Shown: positions 494 through 20,000 of the stretch, piece by piece | How positions within the stretch are numbered: the first letter of the stretch is position 1 | Layout: every line of letters begins with the position of its first letter | IMG/VR virus record: IMGVR_UViG_3300038317_000166 | Strand: one strand, 5' to 3' | Length of the DNA: 20,000 nt | DNA from: an uncultured virus (IMG/VR IMGVR_UViG_3300038317_000166) | Taxonomy: Duplodnaviria; Heunggongvirae; Uroviricota; Caudoviricetes | Notes under the pieces: model-generated | What the model saw: only the letters and a program-made list of their open reading frames with translations | Told to the model about the DNA's origin: nothing | Databases searched by the model: none | Program-made: the position numbers and the translations under genes

Positions 494-506
494 GGAGGGC
501 TGACCT

Positions 507-728
507 ATGAGTGACTATAACGCAAAAAACTACACCGAGCAGGGCGGAGAAAAAACCGTCATTGGTGGCACACTCGAAATCTTGGAGGGAGCCTCGGTAA
601 CGGGGCTTCCTACTGCAGAAAATCAGGCGGACAGTACCGCGACCGATGCCGCAGGCTTGGTTACGGACTTTAACGCTCTTCTCGCCAAGCTGAAAGCGGC
701 GGGTTTGATGGTGGCGGACGAAGAATAA
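507..728 (+). CDS. Head fibre / capsid decoration protein
   Basis: 73 aa directly after the capsid gene with RBS AAGGAGG. C-terminal AENQADSTATDAAGLVTDFNALLAKLKAAGLM resembles phage head-fibre proteins. Confidence 0.75.
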   Translation: MSDYNAKNYTEQGGEKTVIGGTLEILEGASVTGLPTAENQADSTATDAAGLVTDFNALLAKLKAAGLMVADEE

Positions 729-747
729 CCCAAAGGAGGCGGATGGC

Positions 748-1065: not shown

Positions 1066-1067
1066 CA

Positions 1068-1834: not shown

Positions 1835-2169
1835 GCATTTTAACAGAATTGAACACATTGCTTTCGCCTGTTCTCCCTGTGGAGACAGGCGTTTTTTCCG
1901 GCGTTCCTCCCGACGAATACCTTGTATTCACACCCATGACGGACGAATTTGCCCTGTTTGGAAATAACACACCGCTCTTCGATATCTCCGAAGTGCGGAT
2001 TTCGCTGTTTTCCAAAGGCAACTACCTCCAGAGGAAAAAGCAGATAACAGCGCTGCTTCTGGGCGCAGAATTTACGATAACCGACCGCCGGTATATTGGC
2101 CATGAGGACGATACCGGCTACCACCACTACGCCATTGATGTGGAAAAATCATACGAAACGGAGGAATAA
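1831..2169 (+). CDS. Putative tail terminator / tail completion protein
   Basis: 112 aa between gp10-like and major tail genes; ATGA overlap; C-terminal EDDTGYHHYAID motif typical of this position. Confidence 0.7.
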   Translation: MSILTELNTLLSPVLPVETGVFSGVPPDEYLVFTPMTDEFALFGNNTPLFDISEVRISLFSKGNYLQRKKQITALLLGAEFTITDRRYIGHEDDTGYHHYAIDVEKSYETEE

Positions 2170-2172
2170 ATT

Positions 2173-2763
2173 ATGGCGACAATCGGTCTTGATAAACTGT
2201 ATTATTCAAAAATAACCGAGGATTCCAACGGCGAAGAAACATACTCTACGCCTTTGGTGCTTGCCAAAGCCATCACTGCCGAACTCTCGGTGGAACTGGT
2301 GGAGGCAATATTATACGCTGACGACGGTGCCGCCGAAGTGGTGAAAGACTTCAACAGCGGTACGCTCACACTTGGCGTTGACGACATTGGACCCACTGCA
2401 GCGGCGGATCTGACCGGCGCATCCACAGACGATAACGGCGTACTGATCTCAGCAAGCGAGAACGTGGGAACGCCTGTCGCAGTAGGCTTCCGCGCGAAGA
2501 AAGCAAACGGTACCTACCGCTATTTCTGGCTTTACCGCATAAAATTCGGTCTGCCCGCGACCAATCTGCAGACCAAGGCAGACTCCATCACATTTTCCAC
2601 GCCGACTATCGAAGGGACGGTCATGCGCCGCAACAAACTGGACGCTTTTGGCAAGCACCCGTGGAAGGCGGAGGTTACCGAAGGTGACGCCGGAGTGGCT
2701 TCTGCCACAATCACCGGTTGGTTCACCGAGGTTTACGAACCTGCCTATACACCGGAGCCGTAA
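2173..2763 (+). CDS. Major tail protein (phi13 family)
   Basis: MATIGLDKLYY, LYADDG, VAVGFRAKK.NG.YRYFWLY, TKADSITFSTPTIEG motifs; RBS GGAGG. Confidence 0.92.
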   Translation: MATIGLDKLYYSKITEDSNGEETYSTPLVLAKAITAELSVELVEAILYADDGAAEVVKDFNSGTLTLGVDDIGPTAAADLTGASTDDNGVLISASENVGTPVAVGFRAKKANGTYRYFWLYRIKFGLPATNLQTKADSITFSTPTIEGTVMRRNKLDAFGKHPWKAEVTEGDAGVASATITGWFTEVYEPAYTPEP

Positions 2764-2775
2764 GGAGGATGCAGA

Positions 2776-3186
2776 ATGAATAACGTCATTTTTACAAATG
2801 CCGCCGAAAGAAGCGCCGCTATCAATATCGGCGGCAAGGAATATGAACTGGTGCTGACCACCCGCGCGACCAAGGCGATTGCAGGGCGGTACGGTGGACT
2901 TGAAAATCTCGGCGAGAAGCTGATGAAATCGGAAAATTTCGAGATGGCGCTGGATGAGATCGTGTGGCTCCTGACACTGCTCGCTAACCAGTCCGTTTTG
3001 ATTCACAACCTCAAAAACAAGGATGCCCCGCAGGAGCTTCTGACAGAGGAGGAGGTAGAACTTCTCACCTCGCCCCTCGATCTGGCGGCCTACAAAAATG
3101 CGATTACAGAGGCAATGTTCAAGGGTACCAAGCGCAACGTGGAAAGTGAGGACGAAACCTCCTTAAAAAACGCACAAGTCGAGTAG
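2776..3186 (+). CDS. Tail assembly chaperone (lambda gpG analogue)
   Basis: Between major tail and tape measure genes; INIGGKEYEL..T motif; ends shortly after the slippery heptamer A AAA AAC. Confidence 0.85.
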   Translation: MNNVIFTNAAERSAAINIGGKEYELVLTTRATKAIAGRYGGLENLGEKLMKSENFEMALDEIVWLLTLLANQSVLIHNLKNKDAPQELLTEEEVELLTSPLDLAAYKNAITEAMFKGTKRNVESEDETSLKNAQVE

Positions 3187-3392
3187 ACGGACTGTGTCAG
3201 CAAACTGACGCGGAAACCTTTACTCGACTTCTTTATTACGGAACGGTGCAGATGGGTATGGCCTCGGAGGAATTCTGGCTCATGCCCATCGGCCTGTTTC
3301 TGGACCTGTGGGCCTGCCACAAACAGTTTCTCGGCATGGAAAAGCCGAAGAAAACCCGGACGATCGACGATATCATTCCACCCGGAATCTAA
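3165..3392 (+). CDS. Tail assembly chaperone frameshift extension (lambda gpT analogue), -1 frame; absent from the ORF track
   Basis: The -1 frame is open from the heptamer at 3165-3171 to TAA at 3390-3392: RTSRVDGLCQQTDAETFTRLLYYGTVQMGMASEEFWLMPIGLFLDLWACHKQFLGMEKPKKTRTIDDIIPPGI. Confidence 0.8.
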   Translation, partial: KKRTSRVDGLCQQTDAETFTRLLYYGTVQMGMASEEFWLMPIGLFLDLWACHKQFLGMEKPKKTRTIDDIIPPGI

Positions 3393-3406
3393 GGAGGTGA
3401 GCATAA

Positions 3407-5830: not shown

Positions 5831-5843
5831 AGGAGGGACGGCT

Positions 5844-6695
5844 ATGGAACTAACCTATATCAATGCAAATGGCAAAAGCATCACGCTCGAACAAGGCCGC
5901 CCGTATTTTCTTAAGAAGATAGACGGCACTGGCGACATTCGTCAGACCGTTAACACGTTCAAGGCACCGGATCAGGACGGCGCTTTTTACATCTCCTCAA
6001 CACTGGATATGCGCAATATCACGCTGGAAGGCACAGTCATCGCGGACACACCTGATGAAGCCTACGCACGAAGGCACAGCTTCCTTCAAATATTCAGTCC
6101 CAAGGTGAACGGGACGCTTCTGTACCGGGAGCGGCAAATTGCCTGCGTCGTAGAGGAGGCGGGCTTTACGGTTTCCACCCGGCAGCGGATACCCGGCTTT
6201 TTTGTCAGTTTGCTCTGCCCGTCTCCATTCTTCGAGACACAGGATGAGGTTCGCGAGGAACTGGCGTCATGGATACCAATGTTCGAATTTGAACTGGAGC
6301 TGCCCGAAAGCGGCATGGAATTCGGAATGCGCCAGCCCAGCCAGATCATCACGGTTGACAACATCGGCGATGTTTCATGCGGCTGTGAAATTGTGTTCCG
6401 GGCGCTGGGTACGGTGACAAATCCCGAACTGCTGAACATGGATACTGGGGAATACATCCGGCTCCTAACAACAATGAACATCGGGGATGAACTCCGGGTA
6501 TACACGCATTTTGCCGGAAAGCGCGTAGTCAGCGTTGACGGCTCGACAGTAACAAACGCTTTCTCGCTATTGGATACCGGCTCGGCGTTTTTCCAGCTTG
6601 CCGCCGGGGTGAATACTTTACGTTATGACGCTTCAGTCAATATGGAACTGCTGGAGGTCAGCATATATTACCGGCCGCAGTTTTTGGGGGTGTGA
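5844..6695 (+). CDS. Distal tail protein (Dit, siphovirus tail component)
   Basis: Follows the tape measure gene; QDGAFY.S..LDMRNITLEG, LLCPSPFF, NIGDV, FFQLAAGVNTLRY motifs. Confidence 0.88.
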   Translation: MELTYINANGKSITLEQGRPYFLKKIDGTGDIRQTVNTFKAPDQDGAFYISSTLDMRNITLEGTVIADTPDEAYARRHSFLQIFSPKVNGTLLYRERQIACVVEEAGFTVSTRQRIPGFFVSLLCPSPFFETQDEVREELASWIPMFEFELELPESGMEFGMRQPSQIITVDNIGDVSCGCEIVFRALGTVTNPELLNMDTGEYIRLLTTMNIGDELRVYTHFAGKRVVSVDGSTVTNAFSLLDTGSAFFQLAAGVNTLRYDASVNMELLEVSIYYRPQFLGV

Positions 6696-6697
6696 GG

Positions 6698-8614
6698 ATG
6701 GAACTGTATATCTATAATTCTGACCGGGAGCTTACTGGCATTGTGGAATCCTTTGAATACCTGCGTTGGACGAGACGTTACTCCCAGTGTGGCTCCTTCG
6801 AACTGCGGGCCATAGCGACACCGGAAAATACCGCGCTCCTGCAAGAAGGTAATTTCATCTGGAAGAACGATGATGAGGAAGCTGGAATTATTGAACATCT
6901 GGAAATGGCTCAGGCAGAGCAGGAAATCATCACGGTGAGCGGCCGTTTTGCAACCTCTTTTCTTTCACGGCGTATTGTCTGGCAAACGGAGGTGCTGTCA
7001 GGTGATCTTTCCGCCTGTGTGGAGCAGCTTTTAAATAATAACCTCATCAGTCCTACTGATACAGAACGGCAAATCGACGGTATAGTCTTCTCGTCCCCAA
7101 ACCTGAGCGTACCCGTCAGCACCCAGATATCATACCGGGGCCTGATGGATGTGGTAACAGAACTGTGCGGTGCTTCAGAAATTGGCATTAAGACCGTGTT
7201 CACTCCGGCAACGCACCTTTTTACCGTTACACTGTATAAAGGCACCGACTCTCAGGCGGTATTCTCCAAGGAATATGAAAACCTGACGGAACAGAGCTAT
7301 ACGGAGAGCGCGGCGGATTACGCCAACACCGCTCTCATCGGCGGCGAGGGTGAAGGCGAAGGCCGCACATTTGCCACCATTACCAGCGGCTCCGGCGAGA
7401 CCCGGCGAGAAATTTTCGTGGATGCCAAAGACCTGCAAGCGGCAGATTTCGGTACAGGTTACACCGACGCACTGATCTTCCGGGGACAGAGCAAGCTGAG
7501 CGAGCAGGGAATCCTTTATTCGTTCGACACGTCGGTGAACTCTCACGGCAACTTAACCTACAAGACAGATTTTGACATTGGCCAGACTGTAAAAGTCATT
7601 TCCAAGGCGTGGGGCGTATCCATGACGACGCGCATCACTGAAATTGAAGAGACTTATGACGCGGACGGTCTGAGCATCAGTGTTGTGTTCGGAAAGGCCG
7701 AGTTAACAATCGCGCAGAAGATCCGCTCCGACATGAGCGAAATCAAAACGGCTCTGTCGGCTCCAACCGGGATAACCGAAGTAACGGAGGCACTGAACGC
7801 TGTGGAGGGAACGCTGGGAAATCTCTCGGAGGTGGACCCGGATATTCAGGGGGCAACCTTTACAGCTACCGTGAACAACTTATATGGAAAGCTGCCCGCG
7901 CTTGAAATAACCGTGGGTGCGGGCACGATATCGGTCGGGCAATATGCCCTGCATCATATGGAACCGGGAGATTCGTTGTATTTCACATCGTGGAGCGGCA
8001 ACAAATTCAGCGACCAGCCGAGTGACGACGGTCATGTCTTTCTGGTAAAGCATAATGGTGACAATACGGGAAGCGGATACCAGCGGGCAATGGGTTTCTT
8101 TATATCCCGCAATACCATGACGTTTTATGTGGTTTCTCTTTTCGTTTACAACAATCCGTCCGTCGAGGCGAACTGGCTGAATATCAACAATGAGCCTATC
8201 ACTACGACACGGATTGCAACCGGAGCGGTCACCGGAGTAAAGATTGCGGACCGCACCATTACCGCTGTCAAAATTGCGTCTGCGCTGACCGATTACTCCG
8301 CAACAGAACAAAACACCGGGCGACTATGGATAGACGGTAAGACCATTTACAGAAAAGAAATCAATCTCGGCTCTCTTCCGAATGCGGTGCCGGGAAGTGT
8401 AGCGCACGGTATATCCAATCTCAGCACGGTTGTGAGTTTATCAGGCTTCGCTACAAACGGGACGGTGTTCCTGCCGTTACCGCTTGCACGATACAACAAC
8501 TTTGCTTCCCAGATTGGTCTCTACGCGGATACCACCAATATTATCGTCGAGCCCGGAAATGACCGAACCGCATATACGGGCTACGTGATAATTGAATATA
8601 CAAAAACCAGCTAA
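6698..8614 (+). CDS. Baseplate hub, ReqiPepy6 Gp37-like protein, with a ~295-aa C-terminal fibre-like extension
   Basis: N-terminal GIVESFEYLRWTRRYSQCGSFEL, NTALIGGEGEG..R, RREIFVDAKD, YKTDFDIGQTV motifs; ATG at 6698 (alternative GTG at 6692). Confidence 0.85.
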   Translation: MELYIYNSDRELTGIVESFEYLRWTRRYSQCGSFELRAIATPENTALLQEGNFIWKNDDEEAGIIEHLEMAQAEQEIITVSGRFATSFLSRRIVWQTEVLSGDLSACVEQLLNNNLISPTDTERQIDGIVFSSPNLSVPVSTQISYRGLMDVVTELCGASEIGIKTVFTPATHLFTVTLYKGTDSQAVFSKEYENLTEQSYTESAADYANTALIGGEGEGEGRTFATITSGSGETRREIFVDAKDLQAADFGTGYTDALIFRGQSKLSEQGILYSFDTSVNSHGNLTYKTDFDIGQTVKVISKAWGVSMTTRITEIEETYDADGLSISVVFGKAELTIAQKIRSDMSEIKTALSAPTGITEVTEALNAVEGTLGNLSEVDPDIQGATFTATVNNLYGKLPALEITVGAGTISVGQYALHHMEPGDSLYFTSWSGNKFSDQPSDDGHVFLVKHNGDNTGSGYQRAMGFFISRNTMTFYVVSLFVYNNPSVEANWLNINNEPITTTRIATGAVTGVKIADRTITAVKIASALTDYSATEQNTGRLWIDGKTIYRKEINLGSLPNAVPGSVAHGISNLSTVVSLSGFATNGTVFLPLPLARYNNFASQIGLYADTTNIIVEPGNDRTAYTGYVIIEYTKTS

Positions 8615-8632
8615 ACAAGGAGGAAACAGCGC

Positions 8633-9136
8633 ATGGAGAAAAGCGGATTTTTTAACTCGTCGGATGGAGACAGAGTCTATGACGCGACGGATTTCGCGGC
8701 ATATTTCGGAAGCCTTGTGTCGAACGGCGTATTCTACGCATCGGCGACGAACCTGCAGGCAACGCCCGGAAACGGGCTGGCGGTAAGCGTGGCAGCAGGC
8801 AGCGCTTGGATTAACGGATACCGGTATGAAAATACAGACGACCTCAACCTGCCGCTCACCACGGCAAACGGAAGCAATCCCCGAATTGACCGGATTGTGG
8901 TTCGTTTAAGCCAGGTCAGCCGAAGCATTCAGCTTGCCGTGGTTGACGGTACTCCGGCCGCGACGCCGTCAACTCCAGCGCTGACAAGGACCAGCGACAT
9001 CTATGAACTTGGGATTGCCGACGTTCTAATACCGGCTGCCGCCACATCGATAGCCACAAACAACATTACCGATACCCGGCTGAATACCAGCCTTTGCGGG
9101 CTGGTCAATTCTCTTGTGACGGCAGTTTATGAATGA
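8633..9136 (+). CDS. Putative baseplate / fibre-anchor structural protein
   Basis: MEKSGFFNS..GDRVYDA.DFA.YF, V..GSAWINGY, PRIDRIVVRL, YELGIADV, ITDTR motifs, commonly found after Gp37-like genes; RBS AAGGAGG. Confidence 0.75.
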   Translation: MEKSGFFNSSDGDRVYDATDFAAYFGSLVSNGVFYASATNLQATPGNGLAVSVAAGSAWINGYRYENTDDLNLPLTTANGSNPRIDRIVVRLSQVSRSIQLAVVDGTPAATPSTPALTRTSDIYELGIADVLIPAAATSIATNNITDTRLNTSLCGLVNSLVTAVYE

Positions 9137-9150
9137 GGAGGTGAACGACG

Positions 9151-11505
9151 ATGGCGGATATTTACGGCGTAACGCTACAGGCAGGTTCAAGCCCAACCGT
9201 CTATTACACCATTACCTATTCTAAGAGCCGACCGAACAATAGCCAGATGACCTATAACTTTACTATATCCGCAGCGCTGGGTTCGTCAGGTTCTTACATC
9301 CACAGCGGCTACGCCCTGCTCTGTACCATGACCGTAAACGGTTCATCTGCACAAGTGCGCATCAAGGCGGCGGACGGCGACGACTGGGATGGAACCACGC
9401 CTAGGCTCAGATATGTTTCGGTCACATGTGCTTCCACTACGGGAAACACCGCACAGGGCGTGCGCTTTCAGGTGGTGTCGGACGGACGGCTTCCTCTATC
9501 CTCCGGCGTAATTGATAACTCAAGCTACACCGTGTTAAGTTCAGCCCTTCTGACCACGGCCTGCGGAGCACCGACCTCCTGCTCGGTTAGTCCAATACTC
9601 GCGGAAGGAACCGTTACCCTTTCTTGGAGTGGAGCTTCCAGCGGCATAAACAATACGATTTCCAGTTATGAAATCCAGTACAGTGATTCCACTGACAATC
9701 TCACATGGGGAGCTTGGGCTGCACTGACAACGGTGACTACTACAGCTACAAGCGGCAGTGTATCAGTTGATCCGCCTTCGACGCGGGGCAATTACCGCAG
9801 GTTCCAGGTGCGGACGCGTGGTACGGCAGGAGCAAGTTATTACTCCGGCTGGAAAGTATCCACGAACTCCGTCCGCAGGAATACAGCACCGAGTCCGGCG
9901 ACGTCAGCCGTTGCTTCTCCCGCTGAATACAGCAATGAGACGATAACGCTGACTTGGAGCGGAGCCTCTGGCGGCACCAGTCCGGTAAAGGGCTACCAGA
10001 TTGCCAGCCGAACATCCTTGGACAACAGCACCTGGAGCACGTGGAATGTATTGGTCATTCTGACCCTGTCCGCCAGCGGTGGCAGCTACAACCCGGCTGT
10101 ATCAAGCACGCCGGGGACCTATACGCAATTCGGCATCTGGACAATCGACACCTTTGATGTCTATTCTGTTGAGAAAATCAGTAACAGCATCTACTGCGAC
10201 GTCACAGCTTGCGGAGCACCGACCGTCTGCTCGGTAAGCGCGGCATTAGCTGAAGGAAACGTCACCCTCTCGTGGAGCGGTGCAGCCAATGGCGCGGGCA
10301 ACGCCATCACGTCCTATGAAATACAGTACAGCGACTCTCCCGACAACAGCAGCTGGGGCGATTGGACGGCTCTGACCACGGTGAGCACCTCGGCGACAAA
10401 TGGCATCTTGAGTGTCAGCCCTCCGGCCACGAGGGGCAATTACCGCCGGTTTCGGATACGGACGCGCGGTGCCGCCGGTGAAAGCTTCTATTCCGACTGG
10501 ACGGTGTCCAGCAATACTGTTCGCAGAAATACACTGCCAACGCCGCCGGCATCTTTTACCGCCGCACCCGCGATTTATGAAGGTGGCGTCGTAACGCTTA
10601 CGTGGAGTGGAGCAGCTCCCGGAACCAGCGCCATCAAACAGTACGTCATCCAGCGTTCAACTTCTACGGATGGAACGAACTGGTCGGCATACGAAGCTCT
10701 TACAATAGTTGTTTCAAGCTCCACCTCTGGAACGTATACGGCGAACGCTTCCCAGATAGCCGGAACATATACTCGCTACCGTATCAGCGTAACCGATACC
10801 TTAGATGCGGTTTCCGCCTATGTAATCAGCGGGACGGTAAAGAAAAACAGCCCTCCGTCTGCTCCGGTAATCGTCTGCCCGCCGTCCGGCGGTTCCAGCT
10901 ACAATACCACTCCGCGTTTTATGATTACAACGGGTGTCGAACCGGACGGCCAGTCGCAGATTGTGGAAGTAAAAATCGATACGGGTGTTTGGATCAACAG
11001 TGTGGATAATCCCGAGCGATTTTCCACGAGCGGATACCTTGGGAATGGCGTTAAAACAGTCTATCAGGCGGAAACGCTGGCGGCAGGAAGTCATTCTATT
11101 ACCATCCGCTGCCTTGACAGCGATATCGAGTCGGCGAGTCCGGAGGTTGTCCGCACTTTTACAGTCCTGTCAACGCCATTCGAGACAATTACCGCGAACG
11201 AAACCCATGTGAAAGCGGTGCATATTCGGACACTCCGAACCGCTGTAAACATGGTACGAAGCTATTATGGCTTATCGCCCGCAACTTGGAGTGAGGACAT
11301 TTCCGCTGGAAAGACTACGGTCAAAAACTGGCCGTTCCACATCACGGAACTTCGAAAAGCCATCGAGCCTGTCATTACGGCGGTCAACGGTTTCGATTTC
11401 TCATCTTCTTTTGATATCCCACCCGTAACTTGGCTGCCCATCGGAGCAGGGCGTCCAAAAGCGGATGTGATGCAGCAGATTCAGAATTTGATTTTAACAC
11501 TTTAA
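9151..11505 (+). CDS. Tail-associated protein with four fibronectin type III-like repeats (putative adhesin)
   Basis: Ser/Thr-rich 784 aa; four VTL(S/T)WSGA...Y.I...D...W...Y.RF/Y units; RBS GGAGGTGA. Confidence 0.8.
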   Translation: MADIYGVTLQAGSSPTVYYTITYSKSRPNNSQMTYNFTISAALGSSGSYIHSGYALLCTMTVNGSSAQVRIKAADGDDWDGTTPRLRYVSVTCASTTGNTAQGVRFQVVSDGRLPLSSGVIDNSSYTVLSSALLTTACGAPTSCSVSPILAEGTVTLSWSGASSGINNTISSYEIQYSDSTDNLTWGAWAALTTVTTTATSGSVSVDPPSTRGNYRRFQVRTRGTAGASYYSGWKVSTNSVRRNTAPSPATSAVASPAEYSNETITLTWSGASGGTSPVKGYQIASRTSLDNSTWSTWNVLVILTLSASGGSYNPAVSSTPGTYTQFGIWTIDTFDVYSVEKISNSIYCDVTACGAPTVCSVSAALAEGNVTLSWSGAANGAGNAITSYEIQYSDSPDNSSWGDWTALTTVSTSATNGILSVSPPATRGNYRRFRIRTRGAAGESFYSDWTVSSNTVRRNTLPTPPASFTAAPAIYEGGVVTLTWSGAAPGTSAIKQYVIQRSTSTDGTNWSAYEALTIVVSSSTSGTYTANASQIAGTYTRYRISVTDTLDAVSAYVISGTVKKNSPPSAPVIVCPPSGGSSYNTTPRFMITTGVEPDGQSQIVEVKIDTGVWINSVDNPERFSTSGYLGNGVKTVYQAETLAAGSHSITIRCLDSDIESASPEVVRTFTVLSTPFETITANETHVKAVHIRTLRTAVNMVRSYYGLSPATWSEDISAGKTTVKNWPFHITELRKAIEPVITAVNGFDFSSSFDIPPVTWLPIGAGRPKADVMQQIQNLILTL
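9556..10851 (+). repeat. Intragenic tandem duplication of a 648-bp (216-aa) two-domain unit
   Basis: TACGAPTSCSVS at 9556 recurs as TACGAPTVCSVS at 10204; SYEIQYSDS.DN..WG.W.ALTTV and TRGNYRRF..RTRG.AG.S.YS.W.VS.N.VRRNT are shared. Confidence 0.9.
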
Positions 11506-11518
11506 CACAGTATGGATG

Positions 11519-11549
11519 ATGCGCCTTTGCGGATGCGGGGCGCATTTTT
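11519..11549 (+). terminator. Probable intrinsic terminator or attenuator between tail and lysis genes
   Basis: ATGCGCC (11519-11525) pairs with GGCGCAT (11539-11545), extendable by G-U pairs, followed by TTTT. Confidence 0.55.
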
Positions 11550-11577
11550 ATATGCAAAACAAAAAGGAGGACTCCCA

Positions 11578-12006
11578 ATGAAAGAAGTATGGAACTGGAT
11601 TCAAGTATTGGTGGCAGCGGCTGGTGGCTTCTTCGGCTGGTTTTTCGGCGGCTTTGACGGCTTCTTGTATGCGCTGCTTGTGTTCGTAGTTGTGGACTAC
11701 ATCACCGGTGTCATGTGCGCCATCGCGGACAAAAAGCTGTCCAGCGAGGTCGGCTTCAAGGGCATCTGCAAGAAGGTGCTGATTTTTGTCATGGTGGGCG
11801 TCGCGCACATTATGGACATCTATCTCATCGGCAACGGCGAGGTTCTGCGTACCGCCGTCATCTTTTTCTACTGCTCCAACGAAGGCGTGTCCATGCTGGA
11901 GAACGCGGCGCATCTGGGACTGCCTATTCCCGAAAAACTCAAGGCAGCACTGGAGCAACTTCACGGGCGGAGCGACGATTCAGCAAAGCCGGGTGATGGC
12001 GCATGA
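11578..12006 (+). CDS. Phage holin (toxin secretion/phage lysis holin family)
   Basis: ATG at 11578 after AAGGAGG; hydrophobic helices with DYITG, LSSEVGFKGICKK and NEGVSMLENA..LGLPIPEKL motifs. Confidence 0.93.
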   Translation: MKEVWNWIQVLVAAAGGFFGWFFGGFDGFLYALLVFVVVDYITGVMCAIADKKLSSEVGFKGICKKVLIFVMVGVAHIMDIYLIGNGEVLRTAVIFFYCSNEGVSMLENAAHLGLPIPEKLKAALEQLHGRSDDSAKPGDGA

Positions 12007-13391
12007 TTGATTTAACAAAAGCTGCGACAGTATTCATCGGTCGGCAGGGCGAGAACCATTTTCGCAATCTGGAGTTTGATGTCTCCAGCTTGCTTGGTGA
12101 CGAATATCCCGGCGAGACGTTGACCGCCATTTACAAACGGCCGGACGGCGTCGCTTATCCCATAGTTACAAGCTATGCGGACGGCGTGCTGACCTGGTTG
12201 CCCGGTTCGACGGAAACCGAAATCGTCGGCGTGGGGCAGCTGGAAATCAGGGTTACCCATGAGGACGTTGTCGGGAAAAGCGCGCGGGTACTCACCATCG
12301 TGGAGGAGGCTCTTGCGGACGGAATAGTCGAACCGCCGGAGCCTCCCGCGCAGGAATGGCTGAATCAGGTGCTGACAGCTCTCGCCGCAATTGATGTGAA
12401 TGACACCTACGCGCTGCTCAATCTCACGTACAACCTGTTAAATGATAACTATACTCTGCTCGGAACCGCGCATGACCAGATGGTGAGCATGCGTGACACG
12501 CTGTATACCCGCACCGGGATTATCCTCAATCATCTGCACCCGGTGGAGACTGCCTCGGCACCGGATATGGCAAGCCGTAGAGCGTCCATCACCTTTGCCG
12601 GAATATCGGCGGGCAGCAATATGGTGATTGATAGCGTAACCTATTTGTTTGTTGCGGTGCTGGGCAGTCCGGCAGCAAATACAGTGCAGGTACTGATTCA
12701 GAGCAATCTCAGCGACACGGTCAAAAAGCTTGCCGAAGCCATACGGGGCGTTCAGGATGCGGTAAACATTGCATATGGAAGTGGAACAAATCCGCACCCC
12801 ACCTGTACAGGCTACTGGACAAAGCAGCGGTTTTCCATTGGGGACATTTCCGTTGCTCCCGGAGAAAGCCTGTTCCTGCTGGAAAAAGCAGAAGACGTCA
12901 ATACTGCCATGACGCTGACCTCCACTGCCGCATCAACCATCAACGCTTTCATTCGGATGCCGCACCTGCGGTATGTCTTGTCGGGTAATGCTCTCGGCTC
13001 GGGTGGCACCAACAGCCTCAGAGGGCCTATGCATACCATTCTGCCCATTGGCAGCATTGTAATCGGCGGTCAGGACGATCCGCTTATCCCGGTGCCCTAC
13101 GACTGCCATCTGGTCACCATATGCCGCCAATCGGATACCACCGAAAAGGAGCTGGACTTCTATATCTCAAACGACGAGCAGACCTTTACCCGGATTTCGA
13201 GAAGTACGCCACTCGGCGCGGATAGTTCCACAGAGGCCCAGCACGCTCAAATCGCTATGCGACAAAGCAGAGTGCCTGCCGGCTACGGGCTATACGCTCG
13301 CATTGGAAGCAACGGCACATCGACGACCGCTTACTGTGATCTGAAGTTTACCTACCATCTGTACCCGGCCGCGCTTGCGGCTTACATTTAA
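12003..13391 (+). CDS. Hypothetical protein; BppU-like N-terminus, putative auxiliary tail fibre / receptor-binding protein
   Basis: 462 aa; ATGA overlap with holin; N-terminal IGRQGEN..R.LEFD...YKRPDG..YP...LTW...G.G.LEI resembles upper-baseplate/fibre attachment domains; Pro-rich linker, heptad segment, beta-rich C-terminus. Confidence 0.6.
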   Translation: MIDLTKAATVFIGRQGENHFRNLEFDVSSLLGDEYPGETLTAIYKRPDGVAYPIVTSYADGVLTWLPGSTETEIVGVGQLEIRVTHEDVVGKSARVLTIVEEALADGIVEPPEPPAQEWLNQVLTALAAIDVNDTYALLNLTYNLLNDNYTLLGTAHDQMVSMRDTLYTRTGIILNHLHPVETASAPDMASRRASITFAGISAGSNMVIDSVTYLFVAVLGSPAANTVQVLIQSNLSDTVKKLAEAIRGVQDAVNIAYGSGTNPHPTCTGYWTKQRFSIGDISVAPGESLFLLEKAEDVNTAMTLTSTAASTINAFIRMPHLRYVLSGNALGSGGTNSLRGPMHTILPIGSIVIGGQDDPLIPVPYDCHLVTICRQSDTTEKELDFYISNDEQTFTRISRSTPLGADSSTEAQHAQIAMRQSRVPAGYGLYARIGSNGTSTTAYCDLKFTYHLYPAALAAYI

Positions 13392-13408
13392 ACTGTGAGG
13401 TGCTTTTT

Positions 13409-14128
13409 ATGAATCTGCATAAACTCATTCTGACAAACAACGCCTGCTACAAGGCGGGCCGCACCATTACGCCGAAGGGTATCATAGTGCATTCCACCGG
13501 GGCGAACAATCCCAATCTGAAACGCTATGTCGGCCCGGATGACGGACTGCTTGGCAAAAACCAGTACAACAATCACTGGAACCAGAATACGCCGGACGGC
13601 CGTCAGGTCTGCGTCCACGGTTTTATCGGTAAACTGGCTGATGGCTCCATTGCAACGTACCAGACCTTGCCGTGGAATATGCGCGGCTGGCACTGTGGCA
13701 GCGGTACAAAAGGCTCCGGTAACGATACACATATCGGCTTCGAAATCTGCGAGGACGGTCTGACCGATGCCTCGTATTTTTCTGCCGTTTACAAGGAAGC
13801 CGTGGAGCTTTGCGTATATCTCTGCAAGCAATACGGACTTACGGAAAAGGACATCATCTGTCACTCGGAGGGTGCGAAGCTGGGGATCGCCAGTAATCAC
13901 GGCGATGTCATGCACTGGTTTCCTAAGTTTGGCAAGAACATGGACACCTTCCGCGCTGCGGTCAAGGCCGGGTTGACGACAGCGAAAACGACCGCTGAAT
14001 CTGACACGCCGAAGAAATATTACCGTGTGCAGGTCGGTGCATATTCCGTCAAGGCAAACGCCGATGCTATGCTCAAAAAGGTCAAGGCGGCTGGTTTCTC
14101 TGACGCTTTTGTGAAGTATAGCGAGTGA
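13409..14128 (+). CDS. Endolysin: N-acetylmuramoyl-L-alanine amidase (amidase_2) with C-terminal SPOR domain
   Basis: GIIVHSTGANNP, VH.FIG, GWHCG, IGFEICE, ICHSEG, NHGD zinc-amidase motifs; YRVQVGAYSVKANADAMLKKVKAAGFSDAFV SPOR repeat; RBS GAGGTG before ATG 13409. Confidence 0.93.
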   Translation: MNLHKLILTNNACYKAGRTITPKGIIVHSTGANNPNLKRYVGPDDGLLGKNQYNNHWNQNTPDGRQVCVHGFIGKLADGSIATYQTLPWNMRGWHCGSGTKGSGNDTHIGFEICEDGLTDASYFSAVYKEAVELCVYLCKQYGLTEKDIICHSEGAKLGIASNHGDVMHWFPKFGKNMDTFRAAVKAGLTTAKTTAESDTPKKYYRVQVGAYSVKANADAMLKKVKAAGFSDAFVKYSE

Positions 14129-14145
14129 CCATATACACATTGCAG

Positions 14146-14188
14146 TAATGCCTACTGGAGATTTTCTCTCTGGTAGGCATTATTTTTT
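14146..14188 (+). terminator. Intrinsic terminator ending the late operon
   Basis: 16-bp stem TAATGCCTACTGGAGA / TCTCTGGTAGGCATTA (two G-U pairs), 5-nt loop, then TTTTTT. Confidence 0.88.
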
Positions 14189-14216
14189 GCTCTTTTTTCG
14201 TCCAAACAGACTGAAA

Positions 14217-14259
14217 TCTTCCAGTGAGTTGTGAGGACAGAGGTTCTCAGACTGGAGGA
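14217..14259 (+). promoter_or_regulatory. Predicted RNA hairpin occluding the RBS of the SHOCT-like gene
   Basis: TCTTCCAGT (14217-14225) pairs with ACTGGAGGA (14251-14259, contains GGAGG); inner stem TGAGGAC-AGAG-GTTCTCA (14232-14249). Confidence 0.5.
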
Positions 14260-14266
14260 AAAATAC

Positions 14267-14488
14267 ATGGCCAATATTACTGGCGTAATACCAGAAATCA
14301 ATTATGAAAAGAAACCTGTTCCGCAGGAGCAATTGCAGCGAGAAGTAGATTATGTAAGGGCACAGCGGATACTCTCTTTCATGCTCCAAAACGGACTTGT
14401 TTCCTTGTCGGAATTCAACAAGATAACCACATTAAACCGCAAATCTTTCTCACCGGCTCTGGCACAGATTATGCCCGAAAGCCGTTGA
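14267..14488 (+). CDS. Small SHOCT-like domain protein preceding the recombinases
   Basis: 73 aa from ATG 14267 with RBS GGAGG; EVDYVRAQRIL..ML..GLVS.SEFNKI...NR.SFSP pattern is typical of genes upstream of serine recombinase clusters. Confidence 0.75.
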   Translation: MANITGVIPEINYEKKPVPQEQLQREVDYVRAQRILSFMLQNGLVSLSEFNKITTLNRKSFSPALAQIMPESR

Positions 14489-14513
14489 TATTACTGAACT
14501 TCAGAGGTAATAT
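14485..14513 (+). promoter_or_regulatory. SigA-like promoter of the recombinase operon, overlapped by an imperfect palindrome
   Basis: TTGATA-N17-TAATAT, followed by RBS AAGGAGGTGA and the TTG start at 14539; ATATTAC...GTAATAT and CTGAA-C-TTCAG dyads lie over it. Confidence 0.55.
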
Positions 14514-14538
14514 GTCACACTGACAAGGAGGTGAAAAA

Positions 14539-16101
14539 TTGAAAAAGGTAACGAAAATCAATGAAAATACGTCTGATTTTACAGAGCTTCCCAAACTGCG
14601 TGTTGCGGCTTACTGCCGTGTGTCCACCGATAGTGATGATCAGCTGGTCAGTCTCGACACACAGATAAAGCACTACGAATCCTACATCAAATCAAATCCT
14701 GACTGGGATTTTGCCGGGCTTTATTATGACGAGGGCATCACCGGTACAAAAAAGGAAAAGCGGCCGGAGCTGCTTCGCATGATTGCCGACTGCGAGAACA
14801 AGAAAATTGACTTCATCGTAACAAAGTCCATTAGCCGGTTTGCAAGGAATACAACCGACTGTCTGGAACTGGTGAGGAAGCTGCTTGACCTCGGCATTTT
14901 CATTTACTTTGAGAAGGAAAATATAAACACCGGGTCAATGGAAAGTGAACTCATGCTGTCAATCCTGAGTGGACTGGCCGAAAATGAGTCGGTCTCTATT
15001 GCGGAAAACAGCAAATGGTCGGTAAAGCGTAGGTTTCAAAATGGGACCTTCAAGATTTCCTATCCGCCCTACGGCTACGATACTGCTGATGGAAAGCTGG
15101 TCATAAACGAATCACAGGCGGAAATAGTCCGTTTTATTTTCTTCGAAATTCTTTCCGGCAAGGGTACCGGCAAAATTGCAAATGAGCTGAACCGCCGCGA
15201 TGTGCCATCCAAGAAAGGCGGTCGCTGGACGGCGACAACCATTCGCGGGATGCTCGGTAATGAAAAATACACCGGCGATGCCATTTTTCAAAAAACCTAC
15301 ACCGATATGCACTTCAACCGCCACTACAATTACGGTGAAAAAGACCAGTTCCTGATTAAAAATCATCATGATGCGATTATCAGCCATGAGGATTTCGATG
15401 CCGCGCAGGCTATCATTGAACAGCACGGCAAAGAAAAAGGCGTGGAAAAATATCAGGATAAGTACCAAAACCGATATCCGTTTTCAGGCAAAATCATCTG
15501 CGGTCAGTGCGGTGGCAAATTCAAGCGTCGCATCCACTCCACCGGCAGGCATAATATCGCATGGTGCTGTACCAATCATATAGAGGACGCTAAGAAATGT
15601 TCCATGAAATACATCCCGGAGTCTGATTTTGAATATGCGTTTGTAACTATGGTGAATAAGCTCATATTCGGTCACCAAACCGTTTTAAGGCCCTTATTAA
15701 TGGGCCTTCGCGGTATCAACTCCGAAGACAGTGTGGCAAAGCTGCACACCCTCGATAAAAAGCTCGAAGAAAACGCGGAACAGCGAAAGGTGCTGGTTAC
15801 ACTACAGACCCGTGGCTACCTTGAGCCTGCCGTTTACAACAAGGGAAATAACGAACTTTTGCAAGAAGCCGAGCGCATACAGCGCCAGAAAGAATCCATA
15901 TCCCGCTTCATAAACAGCGACAATATTAACCTGCATGAGGTCAGCGAGCTCCTGCAATACGCCACAAAGGCGGCAATGCTGAAGGGCTTTGACAGAGAAC
16001 TGTTTACTCGCTTCGTGGAGCGGATTCTTGTATATTCACGAACAGAAATAGGGTTCGAATTAAAATGCGGCATTACGCTGAAAGAAAGGTTGGTGAGATA
16101 A
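14539..16101 (+). CDS. Large serine recombinase 1 (resolvase, recombinase, Zn-ribbon and coiled-coil domains)
   Basis: [15 protein letters not shown] with catalytic Ser, [34 protein letters not shown]...WCC...C zinc ribbon; TTG start. Confidence 0.95.
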   Translation: MKKVTKINENTSDFTELPKLRVAAYCRVSTDSDDQLVSLDTQIKHYESYIKSNPDWDFAGLYYDEGITGTKKEKRPELLRMIADCENKKIDFIVTKSISRFARNTTDCLELVRKLLDLGIFIYFEKENINTGSMESELMLSILSGLAENESVSIAENSKWSVKRRFQNGTFKISYPPYGYDTADGKLVINESQAEIVRFIFFEILSGKGTGKIANELNRRDVPSKKGGRWTATTIRGMLGNEKYTGDAIFQKTYTDMHFNRHYNYGEKDQFLIKNHHDAIISHEDFDAAQAIIEQHGKEKGVEKYQDKYQNRYPFSGKIICGQCGGKFKRRIHSTGRHNIAWCCTNHIEDAKKCSMKYIPESDFEYAFVTMVNKLIFGHQTVLRPLLMGLRGINSEDSVAKLHTLDKKLEENAEQRKVLVTLQTRGYLEPAVYNKGNNELLQEAERIQRQKESISRFINSDNINLHEVSELLQYATKAAMLKGFDRELFTRFVERILVYSRTEIGFELKCGITLKERLVR

Positions 16102-16533
16102 ATGGGCCACACTCCATACGGTTACCGGATTATAAACGGAAAAGCCGTGATTGATGAACAATCTGCCGAGCGGATAAAAATCCTGTTTCAGTCCTATCTG
16201 ACCGGCGATTCTTTGGCAACGGCAGCAAAAAAAGCTGAAATTATAGCATTCCACGCAGGCATCAGCAGGATGCTCCAGAATAAGCGCTATCTCGGTGACG
16301 AATATTACCCGGCGATTGTCGACCCGGACACATTTACGGCTGCTGAAGCGGAACGTATCAGACGGGCAGAAAAACTCGGCCGAGTCCGAGAACTAAAAGC
16401 AAAAAAAGAGGTCGTCTATCCCACTGCCTTCCGCATCAGCGAAGACAGAGAGCGGTTTGACGACCCATTCCAGCAGGCGGAATATTCCTACAGCCTGATA
16501 GAAACGGAGGTGGATATAGATGGAGGTCAGTAA
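16102..16533 (+). CDS. Recombinase-domain-only protein (no catalytic domain)
   Basis: Begins at PYGY.I.NG...IDE..A..I..LF..YL.G, then ML.NKRYLG..YPAIVD..TF; no YxRVS motif and no Zn ribbon; starts immediately after the upstream stop. Confidence 0.85.
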
Positions 16534-18088
16534 GAATGTAACCGTCATTCCGGCGAGGAAGCATACCCGAAAGAGCAAGGACGAAGAAAAACCGAAGCTC
16601 CGCGTTGCTGCCTACTGCCGCGTTTCCACAGACAGCGACGAACAGGCGACCAGTTATGACGCACAAATTGAACACTACACCGCTTACATTAACGGCCACC
16701 CAGACTGGGAATTGGCGGGAATCTATGCGGACGACGGCATCTCCGGCACCAATACAAAAAAGCGCGAGGAATTCAACCGCATGATTGACGAGTGCATGGC
16801 CGGCAATATCGACATGGTCATCACGAAGTCCATCAGCCGGTTTGCCCGAAATACGCTGGACTGCTTGAAATACATCCGTCAGCTCAAGGACAAGAACATT
16901 CCTGTTTTCTTTGAAAAAGAAAATATCAACTCTATGGATTCCAAGGGCGAGGTCATGCTTACCATCATGGCGTCGCTTGCCCAGCAGGAAAGCCAATCCT
17001 TAAGTCAGAACGTTAAGCTGGGCCTGCAATACCGATACCAGCAGGGCGAAATCCAGATAAATTGTGCTCGGTTCCTCGGTTATACAAAGGATGAGAATAA
17101 GCATCTTGTAATAGTGCCGGAAGAAGCTGAAATTGTGAAACGCATTTACCGGGAATACCTTGAAGGTGCCAGTATGCTTAAAATCGCTCGCGGTCTGGAA
17201 GCGGACGGTATTCTGAACGGAGCCGGTAAGGAAAAATGGCATACCAGCAACGTGAACCAGATTTTGCGCAATGAAAAATACATCGGTGATGCTCTACTGC
17301 AGAAAACCTATACCGTTGACTTCCTTACGAAAAAGCGGGTTAAAAATAACGGCCTTGTTCCACAATACTATGTTGAAAACAGCCATGAAGCCATCATCCC
17401 GCGTGAAATTTTCATGCAGGTGCAGGAGGAGCTTATCCGCCGCCGAATCGTCCACACCAGCCCGAATGGAAAAAACAGAACCTTCAGCAGCAATCACTGC
17501 TTCGCTCAGATGATTATCTGCGGTAACTGCGGTGAGGTGTTCAGACGGGTTCACTGGAACAACCGTGGCAAGAAGTCCGTCGTCTGGCGGTGCGTCAGCC
17601 GCTTGGAAAACACCGGTCTGTTCTGCGATGCTCGAACGGTGCCGGAAAGCCAGATTGAGCAAGTGCTGGTTACCGCTATCAACCAAACTTTGTGCGACAA
17701 GGACAACTTCCTCGTCACCCTTCAGAACAATATCGAGACGGTCATAATCCATGAAAACGACCAGACGCTGGACGCTATTGACAAGCGGCTTGAAGAACTT
17801 CAAACCGAGCTTTTGAAGCTGGCCAGTTCCAAGGCAGATTACGAAGATGTCGCTGACGAGATTTACCGCCTGCGCGAGGAAAAGCAGAAAGTGCAGCTCG
17901 ATAACGTCGGCCGGGATGAACTGAAAAAACGCATCACCGATATGGGCGACTTCCTGCGAAAACAGCCCACCGCCATTACGGAATACGACGAGCCGCTTGT
18001 CCGGCGACTGATTGAAAAAGTCACCGTCTACGAGGATAAATTCACTGTGGAATTTAAGTCGGGTGTTACGGTGGATGTGGATGAATAA
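16520..18088 (+). CDS. Large serine recombinase 2
   Basis: [15 protein letters not shown] with catalytic Ser, [42 protein letters not shown]...WRC...C zinc ribbon; RBS GGAGGTG. Confidence 0.95.
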
Positions 18089-18100: not shown

Positions 18101-18145
18101 CGAAGCACTCTACGGAATTATAACGTAGGGTGCCTCGCTTTATTA
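18101..18145. terminator. Probable bidirectional terminator between convergent genes
   Basis: CGAAGCACTCTACG (18101-18114) / CGTAGGGTGCCTCG (18124-18137), 9-nt loop, A-rich on the left and T-rich on the right. Confidence 0.7.
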
Positions 18146-19108
18146 TTATCTTAGTTCCAAACGCTCGAAAATTCGGTAGCAAATGTATGTCAAATAAGGA
18201 GACGGCACTTTCTTCTGGCCAAAATCCCAGTCCTTTAATTTCAAATACACCGATTCAGGCGTAAAAAAGCCTTCTTTATCTTGTTTACTTTTTATATGCG
18301 CAACCATCTCAAGGAAGCGCGGGTCAATCCGTACAAACTCATATTTGCTCAGCACTCCGGCTACGCTGACAATATCATACCAGCATGACGGTGCCTTCAG
18401 CTTGCGGAAGTCGGTACCCATATAGAACATATAAGGATGCTGACCAAGGCTGTTTTCCCACAGGCTCAGCAGCGTTTTCGCGGAGGAAACCGCAATCTGT
18501 GAATCTTTATACTCCGGTATATGCGACAGCAGATCGGCCATAATCAGTGTCGCATACGGGCAGCAATCGTCCTTTTTACCGGGTCCTCTGAATTTGCCCA
18601 GTTCTGGGGAAACAGCGCAGGGGAAGCCGTTATCCCTACATAGAGATACCAAATAGTCAACGCCGGGCTTGATATATTCACGATAATCCATACCCGCCTT
18701 TAGCAGAGCGAGCAAAAGCTGCGGGGCGTCGCACAGGCACCAGCTGAACACATCCTCGCCCGTACCGCCGAAATGCTTCGGGACATTGGTCATAGACTGA
18801 TAGATGCCGTGCTCGTCCCGGTGCTTAAGAATTTCATCGACGGCCGCTTTTATTTCGGGAACTTCCATGCCGAATCCGATATCCAGCAGAAACAGCAGCT
18901 TGTGTATCGGCAGCTCGGGGTTTTTATGGTTTGTTACCAGCGTACCGTGAAATGCCGAAACGTCCTCAAGGTACTTTTTGATACGGCTATCCGCCAGCGC
19001 AGCGTTTCTGAGCTCAACGAGAGCGTCCTCTGAGTCGTTGCATAAATTATGATGAATCGCGTATTTAAGCCAGCCTTCGCTGCGCTCCAAGAGCTTTTGA
19101 TATTCCAT
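18146..19108 (-). CDS. Hypothetical protein, possibly alpha/alpha-barrel (prenyltransferase/squalene cyclase repeat-like)
   Basis: 320-aa ORF with RBS AGGTGA; repeated helix + (Q/R)DxxG(F/I) turns (HRDEHGIY, CRDNGFP, KQDKEGFF). The fold call is tentative. Confidence 0.6.
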   Translation of the reverse strand: MEYQKLLERSEGWLKYAIHHNLCNDSEDALVELRNAALADSRIKKYLEDVSAFHGTLVTNHKNPELPIHKLLFLLDIGFGMEVPEIKAAVDEILKHRDEHGIYQSMTNVPKHFGGTGEDVFSWCLCDAPQLLLALLKAGMDYREYIKPGVDYLVSLCRDNGFPCAVSPELGKFRGPGKKDDCCPYATLIMADLLSHIPEYKDSQIAVSSAKTLLSLWENSLGQHPYMFYMGTDFRKLKAPSCWYDIVSVAGVLSKYEFVRIDPRFLEMVAHIKSKQDKEGFFTPESVYLKLKDWDFGQKKVPSPYLTYICYRIFERLELR

Positions 19109-19140
19109 ACTGCAATCACCTACTTTTCACCAAACTCAAG

Positions 19141-19623
19141 TTATTCCATGGCCAGTCCTTTATCAATAGCTTCCTGAATAATTTTATGGCAGCAAACGCC
19201 AAGCGGATTATTCTCTTTGCAATTGGAGTTTTTCATCGCTCCGGTAATGGCGTTCACTTCCTTAACCGTTTTTGCTCCATGCTTTACAACTGCTTCTATT
19301 ATCTGTTCTTCAGTTACTTTACTGCAATAGCATGCATACTTAGGATTTGCATCTTTTTTGAACCAAATGGGAACACTGACCTGGTCTTTTAAGAATGTCG
19401 TTCCATTGTCCAAGTTATAGTAAACCACTTCGCAATCTTCATTCATGCAGATCTTGTAGCAATCTCCTGCTATATCTTTGCGATGGCTTTCTGCCACCAG
19501 ATGTTCAACGGTTACCTTGCCTACAGATATTCCCTCACTATTGCAGACGGGGCACTTATTTGCCTTGGCCATATCTGTCACTTTTGTGTTGCATCCACAA
19601 CAGCAGTCATTATTTAAATTCAT
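19141..19623 (-). CDS. CopZ-type Zn-binding / BFD-like [2Fe-2S] cluster protein (Csac_0668-like)
   Basis: CPVC...C...C.VVYY then YACYCSKVTEEQI..AV...GA and CKENNPLGVCC, as in the Archaeoglobus CopZ N-terminal domain; ATG 19623 lies 7 nt after GGAGGT. Confidence 0.8.
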   Translation of the reverse strand: MNLNNDCCCGCNTKVTDMAKANKCPVCNSEGISVGKVTVEHLVAESHRKDIAGDCYKICMNEDCEVVYYNLDNGTTFLKDQVSVPIWFKKDANPKYACYCSKVTEEQIIEAVVKHGAKTVKEVNAITGAMKNSNCKENNPLGVCCHKIIQEAIDKGLAME

Positions 19624-19658
19624 ATCCAAAACCTCCGTTTACTGAGATTGATTTGCGT

Positions 19659-19774
19659 ATCTAATCTGACCACACAACCTTGACATTTTCAAAAAACATC
19701 TAAACCGACCACTCACGAACCCATGTTATCTAAATCGACCACTCGTCAAACACCGACATCTAAATCGCTCTCTC
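19659..19774. repeat. Four 17-bp imperfect direct repeats, consensus ATCTAAAYCGACCACTC
   Basis: 19659 ATCTAATCTGACCACAC; 19698 ATCTAAACCGACCACTC; 19728 ATCTAAATCGACCACTC; 19758 ATCTAAATCGCTCTCTC; start-to-start spacing 39, 30, 30. Confidence 0.85.
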
Positions 19775-19860
19775 GCACTCGAAAATGCCCGCTTTGACTT
19801 GTTTCCTCGAAGCGATAAATTTGCGATTTTAGCACGTCGGATTTTTACACCCAAACTCCG

Positions 19861-19886
19861 AAAAGCCCAGTGCTACTGAACTTTTT
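19861..19886 (-). terminator. Hairpin just downstream of the rlmD stop codon, possible weak terminator
   Basis: Minus strand AAAAGTTCAGT-AGC-ACTGGGCTTTT; pairs fully only on this strand (two G-U pairs). Confidence 0.45.
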
Positions 19887-19892
19887 ATGCAC

Positions 19893-20000
19893 TTACTTAT
19901 CAACCCTTGTTATCAATACAACTGTCTCAACGTGGCTTGTTCTCGGGAACATATCAACAGGGGTAATACATTCGGTTTTATATCCTAATTTTGCAAAAAA
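19893..20000 (-). CDS. rlmD: 23S rRNA (uracil-1939-C5)-methyltransferase RlmD/RumA, 3' end only
   Basis: Minus-strand translation FFAKLGYKTECITPVDMFPRTSHVETVVLITRVDK*; VDMFP.T.HVE is the TrmA/RlmD C-terminal signature. Not in the ORF track. Confidence 0.9.
   Translation of the reverse strand, partial: FFAKLGYKTECITPVDMFPRTSHVETVVLITRVDK
19902..19964. other. Predicted prophage-host attachment junction inside rlmD, crossover near the His-Val-Glu codons
   Basis: Imperfect inverted repeat ACCCTTGTT (19903-19911) / AACAGGGGT (19956-19964) centred on 19933/19934; the rumA 3' end is a known serine-integrase target. Confidence 0.6.

Follow-up and report, generated by a model that had tools for sequence, protein, structure and literature searches.

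A four-gene serine recombinase module in a prophage at rlmD, possibly a multi-part, regulated integration machine

Serine integrases are core genome-engineering tools, for which the textbook model holds one enzyme, two 50-bp sites and an unrelated recombination directionality factor (RDF); to our knowledge, they are taught to have no accessory-site control. Here we describe a module of four genes, named S, A, B and C in their order, in a stretch of 20,000 nucleotides from an uncultured virus of the Caudoviricetes (IMG/VR record IMGVR_UViG_3300038317_000166), hereafter the window. The module lies downstream of the holin and endolysin genes of a tailed prophage, with S between endolysin and A, and it is almost certainly a functional integrase module for rlmD (rumA). 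The best explanation of the element is a siphovirus-type prophage, with the module as its integration and excision genes, and our observations suggest that this module is a multi-part, regulated integration machine. Its genes and the signals around them are the following:

14144-14184, + strand: terminator-like hairpin 3' of the endolysin gene
14231-14488, + strand: S, a gene with a SHOCT_2 domain (Pfam PF20612, E 1.5e-13); the likelier start is the ATG at 14267, giving 74 amino acids (aa)
14485-14513, + strand: sigma-70-like promoter consensus between S and A
14539-16101, + strand: A, large serine recombinase of 520 aa with a TTG start and an intact active site
16102-16533, + strand: B, paralogue of 143 aa without catalytic domain, with a reduced recombinase domain (2-112) and a conserved coiled-coil-derived helix (119-135)
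16520-18088, + strand: C, large serine recombinase of 522 aa with an intact active site

Genes of the module and their conservation

By comparing A and C with Pfam, we found Resolvase, Recombinase and Zn_ribbon_recom domains in both proteins, all above the cut-offs, and an identity of 36% between the two. The zinc cysteines are C321, C324, C344 and C354 in A and C334, C337, C358 and C369 in C, and both proteins carry YCRVST and SRFARN. A preliminary description, made from the letters of the window, had already proposed two intact large recombinases of 520 and 522 aa with these motifs and four cysteines, as well as the gene junctions, and both hold: A and B abut in frame at 16101/16102 and B overlaps C by 14 nt (16520-16533). 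The triplet of genes that it described is real and conserved, but belongs to something larger, as the fourth gene S (ending at 14488) and an attachment site at 19933-19934 had been missed.

To compare loci, we used B as query and collected 80 viral loci (the best of 241) and 80 genome loci (the best of 210), which with the window makes 161; all locus counts given here are biased towards loci bearing B. They contain 100 complete modules, 85 of them distinct. Across 85/85 distinct modules, the catalytic serine (S29 in A, S36 in C), both arginines and the four zinc cysteines are invariant in A and in C. B measures 136-143 aa in 83/85, and the gap between A and B is 0 in 75/85. A is intact in 138 of the 161 loci, broken in 13, absent from 2 and cut by a contig end in 8, and C is intact in 115, broken in 8 and cut in 38. 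S was found in 137 loci, scored absent in 10 (one of which, L114, has S further upstream) and cut in 14.

Then, we estimated the ratio of nonsynonymous to synonymous substitution rates (dN/dS) over 36 disjoint pairs (35 for S), which gave 0.107 for A, 0.153 (95% interval 0.139-0.169) for B, 0.071 for C, the most constrained gene of the module, and 0.112 for S. The preliminary description had put forward this ratio as a check on the middle gene, and the outcome is an absence of neutral decay together with a fixed length. The most constrained part of B is residues 119-131, and in its C-terminal helix the proportion of nonsynonymous differences (pN) is 0.015 vs 0.238 for synonymous ones (pS). In addition, 703 of 773 candidates of similar length are homologues of B, and 125 clusters (50% identity) match it at E <= 1e-30. 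Judged by these comparisons, B is a working gene under purifying selection. S, for which a fold search gave no match at E <= 0.001, is a conserved fourth member of the module and a candidate RDF.

Two promoter-like sites were found where 1.1 are expected, a count that is weak alone; both hexamers of the site between S and A recur, some with one change, in 17 listed modules out of 85. An RNA run, which may contain DNA, gave 2 contigs, neither of them over A or B. We also considered read-through or fusion of A, B and C as the normal form and rejected it: A and B are in frame in 75/85 modules, but the stop codon of A varies (TAG in 44, TAA in 27 and TGA in 7 of 85), and the fused forms found are limited to 4 singletons (3 of 4 longer matches, and P0203). 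Three loci (L093, L095 and L125) are deleted elements of 5.5-8.7 kb that keep both kinds of end sequence and C; they are without S and without all or the 5' half of A, and the first 7 codons of B are missing as well from L095.

Descent of B and its modelled docking on A

Both Pfam and profile comparison indicate that B has no catalytic domain. Its match to the Pfam Recombinase family is sub-threshold (19.7 bits vs a cut-off of 21.1), and it matches PHROG 7701 over 1-136 of 137 positions (E 1.6e-53). In the profile comparison, residues 2-112 of B align with residues 174-319 of A with a probability of 97% and gaps of 9 and 27 residues. The structure model of B (predicted local distance difference test, pLDDT, 84) finds its best matches among DNA-binding domains of serine integrases, with weak E-values (4kis, E 1.2e-3), and a comparison with PDB sequences gave no significant match (A118 integrase, E 0.55). 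B had been taken for a shortened recombinase domain and nothing else. That it is without catalytic domain is borne out, but the protein also ends in a conserved helix of coiled-coil type.

An alignment of 11 chosen proteins forms a graded series. At its long end stand middle proteins of 283-302 aa with recombinase, zinc-ribbon and coiled-coil parts, followed by forms of 254-298 aa with a B-like N-terminus and a shortened coiled coil; at the short end stands B, in which the recombinase part is followed by one helix aligned with the coiled-coil region of the longer relatives. In a tree of 33 integrases with several long branches, the first and the last integrases of modules with a middle gene form separate groups (support 100/97 and 98/97), and the last integrases of most pairs without B group with C (97/94). 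From these sequence relationships, we infer that B is a duplicate of an integrase gene that lost its catalytic and zinc-ribbon domains. Non-phage-looking modules at L233:3051-7408 (contig 57 of G001, the genome nearest to the window), L242 and L243 hold the long form of B, a middle gene of 283-325 aa with recombinase, zinc-ribbon and coiled-coil parts and no catalytic domain. Among the viral contigs searched, no relatives of the 283-aa middle protein were found.

Multimer structure prediction, another check that had been proposed, was run as one job of four chains (A 300-520, C 315-522, S 28-85 and the partner B) with their own alignments. The complex of B with A scored 0.77 and the best of 3 controls 0.00; of the solved complexes, 116 of 157 attain the score mark used, and of the mismatched pairs 2 of 215, rates that are rough for four chains with their own alignments. 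The runs agree in at least 77% of contacts, with a partner pLDDT of at least 77. The confident contacts, all with A, join B 104-112 and 122-135 to A 362-393, 480-483 and 511-515, so that B is predicted to dock on the zinc-ribbon/coiled-coil hinge of A. Known RDFs have been modelled at this same kind of junction (bioRxiv 10.1101/2024.06.11.598349). The contact positions of A are more conserved than the rest of its residues 356-518 (0.82 vs 0.71; 26 vs 137 columns, p 0.007, the columns not being independent). The C-terminal part of B tracks the C-terminal domain of A slightly best (rho 0.83 vs 0.75-0.80), but the pairs are not independent, and this co-divergence does not tell A from C as the partner. 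Going by the model, B probably binds A. With A replaced, the control scored 0.00; this lends no support to B binding C or S, but does not speak against it either.

Target gene, half-site motifs and extra copies

The window ends within the target gene, and the sites at this end are the following:

19657-19774, + strand: four direct repeats resembling the phage half-site, putative accessory sites, with spacing 39, 30, 30
19793-19816, - strand: copy of the host-type (B) half-site motif within the element, 117 bp from the phage end
19893-20000, - strand: 3' end of rlmD (rumA), encoding an RlmD-type C-terminus and running off the window
19909-19932, - strand: P half-site, phage-borne, encoding the replacement RlmD C-terminus
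19933-19934, no strand: putative crossover dinucleotide, in a His codon of the conserved RlmD C-terminal motif
19935-19958, + strand: B half-site, host-borne and the odd one, within the rlmD coding frame

We placed the crossover at 19933-19934 because the symmetry centre of attP junctions and a break in identity fall there: L023 and L094 are identical to the window over 19600-19935 and then diverge. Among the pieces listed, contig pieces end at 19934 in 3/4 public runs, and one runs on into a different rlmD allele. The gene at the same position in L115 passes the RlmD profile TIGR00479 with 452.6 bits vs a cut-off of 183.55, and the rlmD motif lies downstream, in convergent orientation, in 14/59 loci with at least 6 kb of room. 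As read from these junctions, the prophage integrates at the 3' end of rlmD, and the C-terminus thus cut off is replaced by one that the phage encodes. In a distant clade (L130-L170), the end downstream of C is formed by the P' arm, with the old rlmD 3' end next to it, and attP is, by its sequence, inverted relative to the module when compared with the clade of the window; the other end of these prophages was located in 1/5 genomes (L275). The nearest genome, G001, is 99% identical over window positions 1-17352 and has its left end about 36.5 kb before window base 1, which would make the prophage about 56 kb long if window and genome are colinear.

Tandem accretion at rlmD is seen at L094:13834, L095:9697 and L121:13616 and 16319, where P arms are followed by the P' arm of a neighbour or by a second end. 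Contig 41 of G001 (L234) carries the end of a second, related element, inserted in rlmD and with the same arrays. At L081:1762-4086, in phi-SsuFJNP3_rum, a remnant of A stands with B and C directly after rumA, and a different integrase pair lies at the other end.

By scoring half-site motifs on 58 distinct junctions, we found a 9-bp phage motif, ATTGATGTC, at positions 16-24, with a mean match of 8.2/9 in P arms (19 arms) and of 8.0 (5 arms) and 7.1 (12 arms) in the two types of P' arm. An attP with a symmetric motif at 16-24 around a 2-bp crossover is present, as for the LI integrase, the zinc ribbon of which reads attP at 16-24 and attB at 11-19 (PMC3783163). An attB bearing the same motif shifted by 5 bp was not found: the host B arm (23 arms) matches the phage motif at 2.1/9 at 16-24 and 2.0/9 at 11-19, with a best value of 4.5/9 at a 3-bp shift, and the arms right of P' match at 2.9/9 at 11-19. 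Instead, the host B arm carries GGRAACATRTC at 11-21, set by rlmD codons.

Since both attP arms share one motif, a split between the paralogues would set the one odd host half-site against the rest, and a left-versus-right division of attP is rejected. The proposal of the preliminary description that each paralogue reads a different half-site therefore keeps only part of its ground: the host motif does differ and is repeated in non-coding DNA at both ends, and the zinc-ribbon hairpins of A and C differ from each other and are each conserved, but the two attP arms are not told apart. Assigning the motifs to A or C through the hairpin sequences of other modules gave no assignment.

The arrays of extra copies extend the ends to 100-280 bp. 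A matrix built from P and P' arms places three of the window repeats in the top 7 of 39,952 positions, and one built from B arms ranks 19793-19816 second of 39,952, after the true arm. The window contains 3 occurrences of the repeat pattern vs 0.05 expected, for a pattern derived from these same ends. Copies of B type exceed all 20 shuffles on 20/22 P sides (near position 117) and 29/29 P' sides, and copies of P type do so on 17/22 P sides and 1/29 P' sides; many P' ends are close kin, so these counts are not independent. Repeat columns are conserved at 0.80-0.84 vs 0.63-0.72 for spacers (27/30 aligned ends), and on P' sides similarity stops just past the last copy. We observed the tandem pattern in 11 viral contigs; in 9 of them, the part retrieved includes both B and C. 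As the host motif is repeated in non-coding DNA, it is presumably read by a protein of the element. Copies also occur in two modules without B, CWou-2020b and phi-SsuFJSM5_rum (both with the same P arm), so that the reader is probably an integrase and B is an unlikely one. Within gene S, at 14394-14404 (- strand), the B-arm motif is matched exactly for a third time.

Proposed mechanism, rival explanations and known systems

Our best reading, to which we give about an even chance, is a CcrAB-like division of half-sites with B as a regulator of A. Two catalytically intact integrases would share the job, as CcrA and CcrB do in SCCmec: one would read the 9-bp motif at 16-24 of both attP arms, and the other the host half-site through the motif at 11-21. 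As a weaker guess, C would be the generalist reader of phage-type half-sites and A the reader of the host half-site. The spaced extra copies at both phage ends would serve as accessory integrase-binding sites and, since integration sorts them onto attL and attR, they could set the direction. B would bind A at the zinc-ribbon/coiled-coil hinge and tune or switch it, possibly also tethering A to DNA via its recombinase fold. Taken alone, the division of half-sites between the two integrases is a reading towards which we lean slightly. An effect of B on direction or synapse architecture, a role already put forward in the preliminary description, is a balanced question in our judgement: the structure model (0.77) speaks for it, but relatives with two integrases do without B.

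The likeness to SCCmec lies in the tandem pair of large serine recombinases, in a target at the 3' end of an rRNA methyltransferase gene and in tandem accretion. There, CcrA is reportedly needed only for the odd half-site, a result attributed to Misiura in 2013. The module also has one odd half-site in a host coding frame, as does SCCmec, where three half-sites resemble one another and the fourth lies in the rlmH frame (PMC13739063). Unlike SCCmec, however, it belongs to a prophage rather than a cassette, sits at rlmD rather than rlmH, and has the additional genes S and B and half-site arrays. Scores against the NCBIfam Ccr equivalogs are far below the cut-offs (142-144 bits vs 900 for CcrB, 63-73 vs 700 for CcrA and 85-111 vs 900 for CcrC). 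By analogy, the module probably works like CcrA/CcrB, yet it is not a Ccr.

Several observations weigh against the division of half-sites with B as regulator. The family includes two-integrase modules that have no B, CWou-2020b and phi-SsuFJSM5_rum among them; B is thus not a general requirement, and the B-motif copies can do without it. A itself is broken in 13/161 loci and absent from 2/161. Host B' arms match the phage motif partly (4.9/9; 35 arms, some of them tandem P arms). The interface of B is conserved at 0.82 vs 0.75 for the rest of the protein (p 0.08), and its docking strand is homologous to the first zinc-ribbon strand of A itself, so that the complex model may pass by likeness. 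B also has a net charge near zero and lacks a recombinase hairpin of 27 residues as well as 9 residues that would precede the recognition helix, which leaves its DNA binding to be read from the fold. As for other systems, IntI as well as IntE of SMphage bound every att probe tested (PMC13651849), and in gin a single one of the three recombinases is sufficient together with a 42-aa RDF (PMC5595907). Finally, the recombinase triplets that the preliminary description had named for rumA-targeting streptococcal elements are not what Ambroset 2016 gives: integrative and conjugative elements (ICEs) at rumA have a single serine integrase, and the triplets are at mutT, traG and hsdM (PMC4701971).

We consider, more tentatively, a heteromeric A/C recombinase that acts on extended ends through phased half-site arrays. 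Control of direction would resemble that of lambda Int, and B, once a complete DNA-binding half that was pared down in steps, would be an RDF specific to one paralogue or a bending subunit. If true, an RDF would have been born from the integrase gene itself, and serine integrases would know accessory-site control. A split by direction, in which one integrase integrates and the other excises while B is a plain RDF licensing A for excision, seems rather unlikely to us. The model places B at the RDF junction in A alone (0.77 vs 0.00 for the best control), both active sites are kept, and the SMphage enzymes, each of which binds all att probes, are named IntI and IntE; but the repeats of the host motif at both ends would go unexplained, the three genes A, B and C, with a gap of 0 between A and B in 75/85 modules, resemble a single coupled operon that would produce enzyme and RDF together, and the accessible text on IntI/IntE reports the double deletion only (PMC13651849).

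C could also be the working integrase by itself with S as its RDF, A and B forming a separate unit used on the arrays or under other conditions, like girAB in gin. C is indeed the most constrained gene, the last integrases of B-less modules group with it (97/94), a promoter-like site lies between S and A, S is also found ahead of a pair without B, gin offers a precedent (PMC5595907), and the deleted L093, L095 and L125 keep both end types and C without the catalytic domain of A. The invariant active site of A in 85/85 modules and a host half-site without the motif of the phage arms nevertheless make this explanation improbable in our view, and the deleted elements, found with B as query, may be immobile relics. 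Very improbable is a B that acts as inhibitor or autoregulator without any role in direction, whether as a dominant-negative decoy on A or as a repressor of the promoter between S and A: its modelled binding to A and the conserved S-A intergenic sequence would fit, but no operator-like repeat is tied to B and its fold is of the att-binding domain type. That B is the decaying remnant of a third integrase agrees with its descent from a recombinase and with the longer and intermediate forms, but hardly with its dN/dS of 0.153, its highly constrained C-terminal helix, its fixed length and the 125 clusters at E <= 1e-30; we count this explanation as refuted, subject to the loci having been found with B.

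The module offers defined sites, four small genes and one named (predicted) protein interface, and describes the insertion machinery of a wide family of Bacillota prophages. It bears on how paired integrases split half-sites outside SCCmec, on whether a dead paralogue can serve as RDF, and on whether accessory sites can steer a serine integrase.

The pairs IntI-IntE of SMphage and phi-m46.1 and orf56-orf57 of Phi1207.3 are likewise tandem serine recombinases placed after lysis genes, with rum targets in part. phi-SsuFJSM5_rum, the pair of which we take to be IntI/IntE, has the same P arm as the module and three copies of the B motif. In these streptococcal pairs, unlike here, the middle gene is missing and the first integrase, of about 400-413 aa, has hardly any coiled coil or none, whereas A has 520 aa and a full coiled coil. 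Cooperation of tandem resolvases has been proposed for Phi1207.3 (PMC4260502), and excision is lost when IntI and IntE are both deleted (PMC13651849).

Erysipelothrix phage phi1605, Streptococcus phage Javan105 and their kin have the same S-A-B-C order, with the genes annotated as integrase, recombinase and site-specific recombinase, and B homologues occur in 15 phage records at >=80% cover. Known from annotation, these modules differ from the window in identity (42-45% for B, 56-60% for C), and no functional studies of them were found in the literature searched. ICE triplets also have three recombinase genes that cluster by module position (Ambroset 2016, PMC4701971); set apart by description only, they have catalytic domains in all three, target mutT, traG and hsdM, and are conjugative. 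The gin element of Bacillus cereus (GirA, GirB, GirC and GirX) combines three serine recombinase genes with a small RDF; it differs, again by description only, in that girC lies apart from girAB and suffices with GirX, and in being non-phage and targeting gerE (PMC5595907).

Canonical integrases with an RDF (A118/LI, Bxb1, phiC31 and SPbeta) share with the module the domain order, the attP motif at 16-24 in both arms (PMC3783163) and an RDF site at the junction where B is modelled on A. Unlike the module, they use one enzyme and sites of about 50 bp with the same motif shifted 5 bp in attB, whereas here the host arm motif differs and the ends extend 100-280 bp. The literature searched, to which subscription papers, supplements and the ISME J 2023 SMphage paper did not belong, gave no studies of the middle gene, the arrays or the mechanism of the module; its gene order is already annotated in public phages, and tests of mechanism were not found.

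Between the module and the prophage end lies one block of cargo:

18146-19629, - strand: genes for a 320-aa protein and a Csac_0668-family 2Fe-2S/CopZ-N protein

The 320-aa protein (18146-19108, - strand) has no Pfam, PHROG or NCBIfam match, and a 67%-identical DNA copy of its gene lies elsewhere in G001. A hairpin at 18105-18133, seen by eye between C and this convergent gene, is probably a terminator. On the other side of the module, a gene for 462 aa without Pfam or PHROG match stands between holin and endolysin (12003-13391) and recurs in 11/81 loci. In 14/81 loci, a gene cluster just downstream was read from its sequence as mef(A)/msr(D), as annotated in phi1605.

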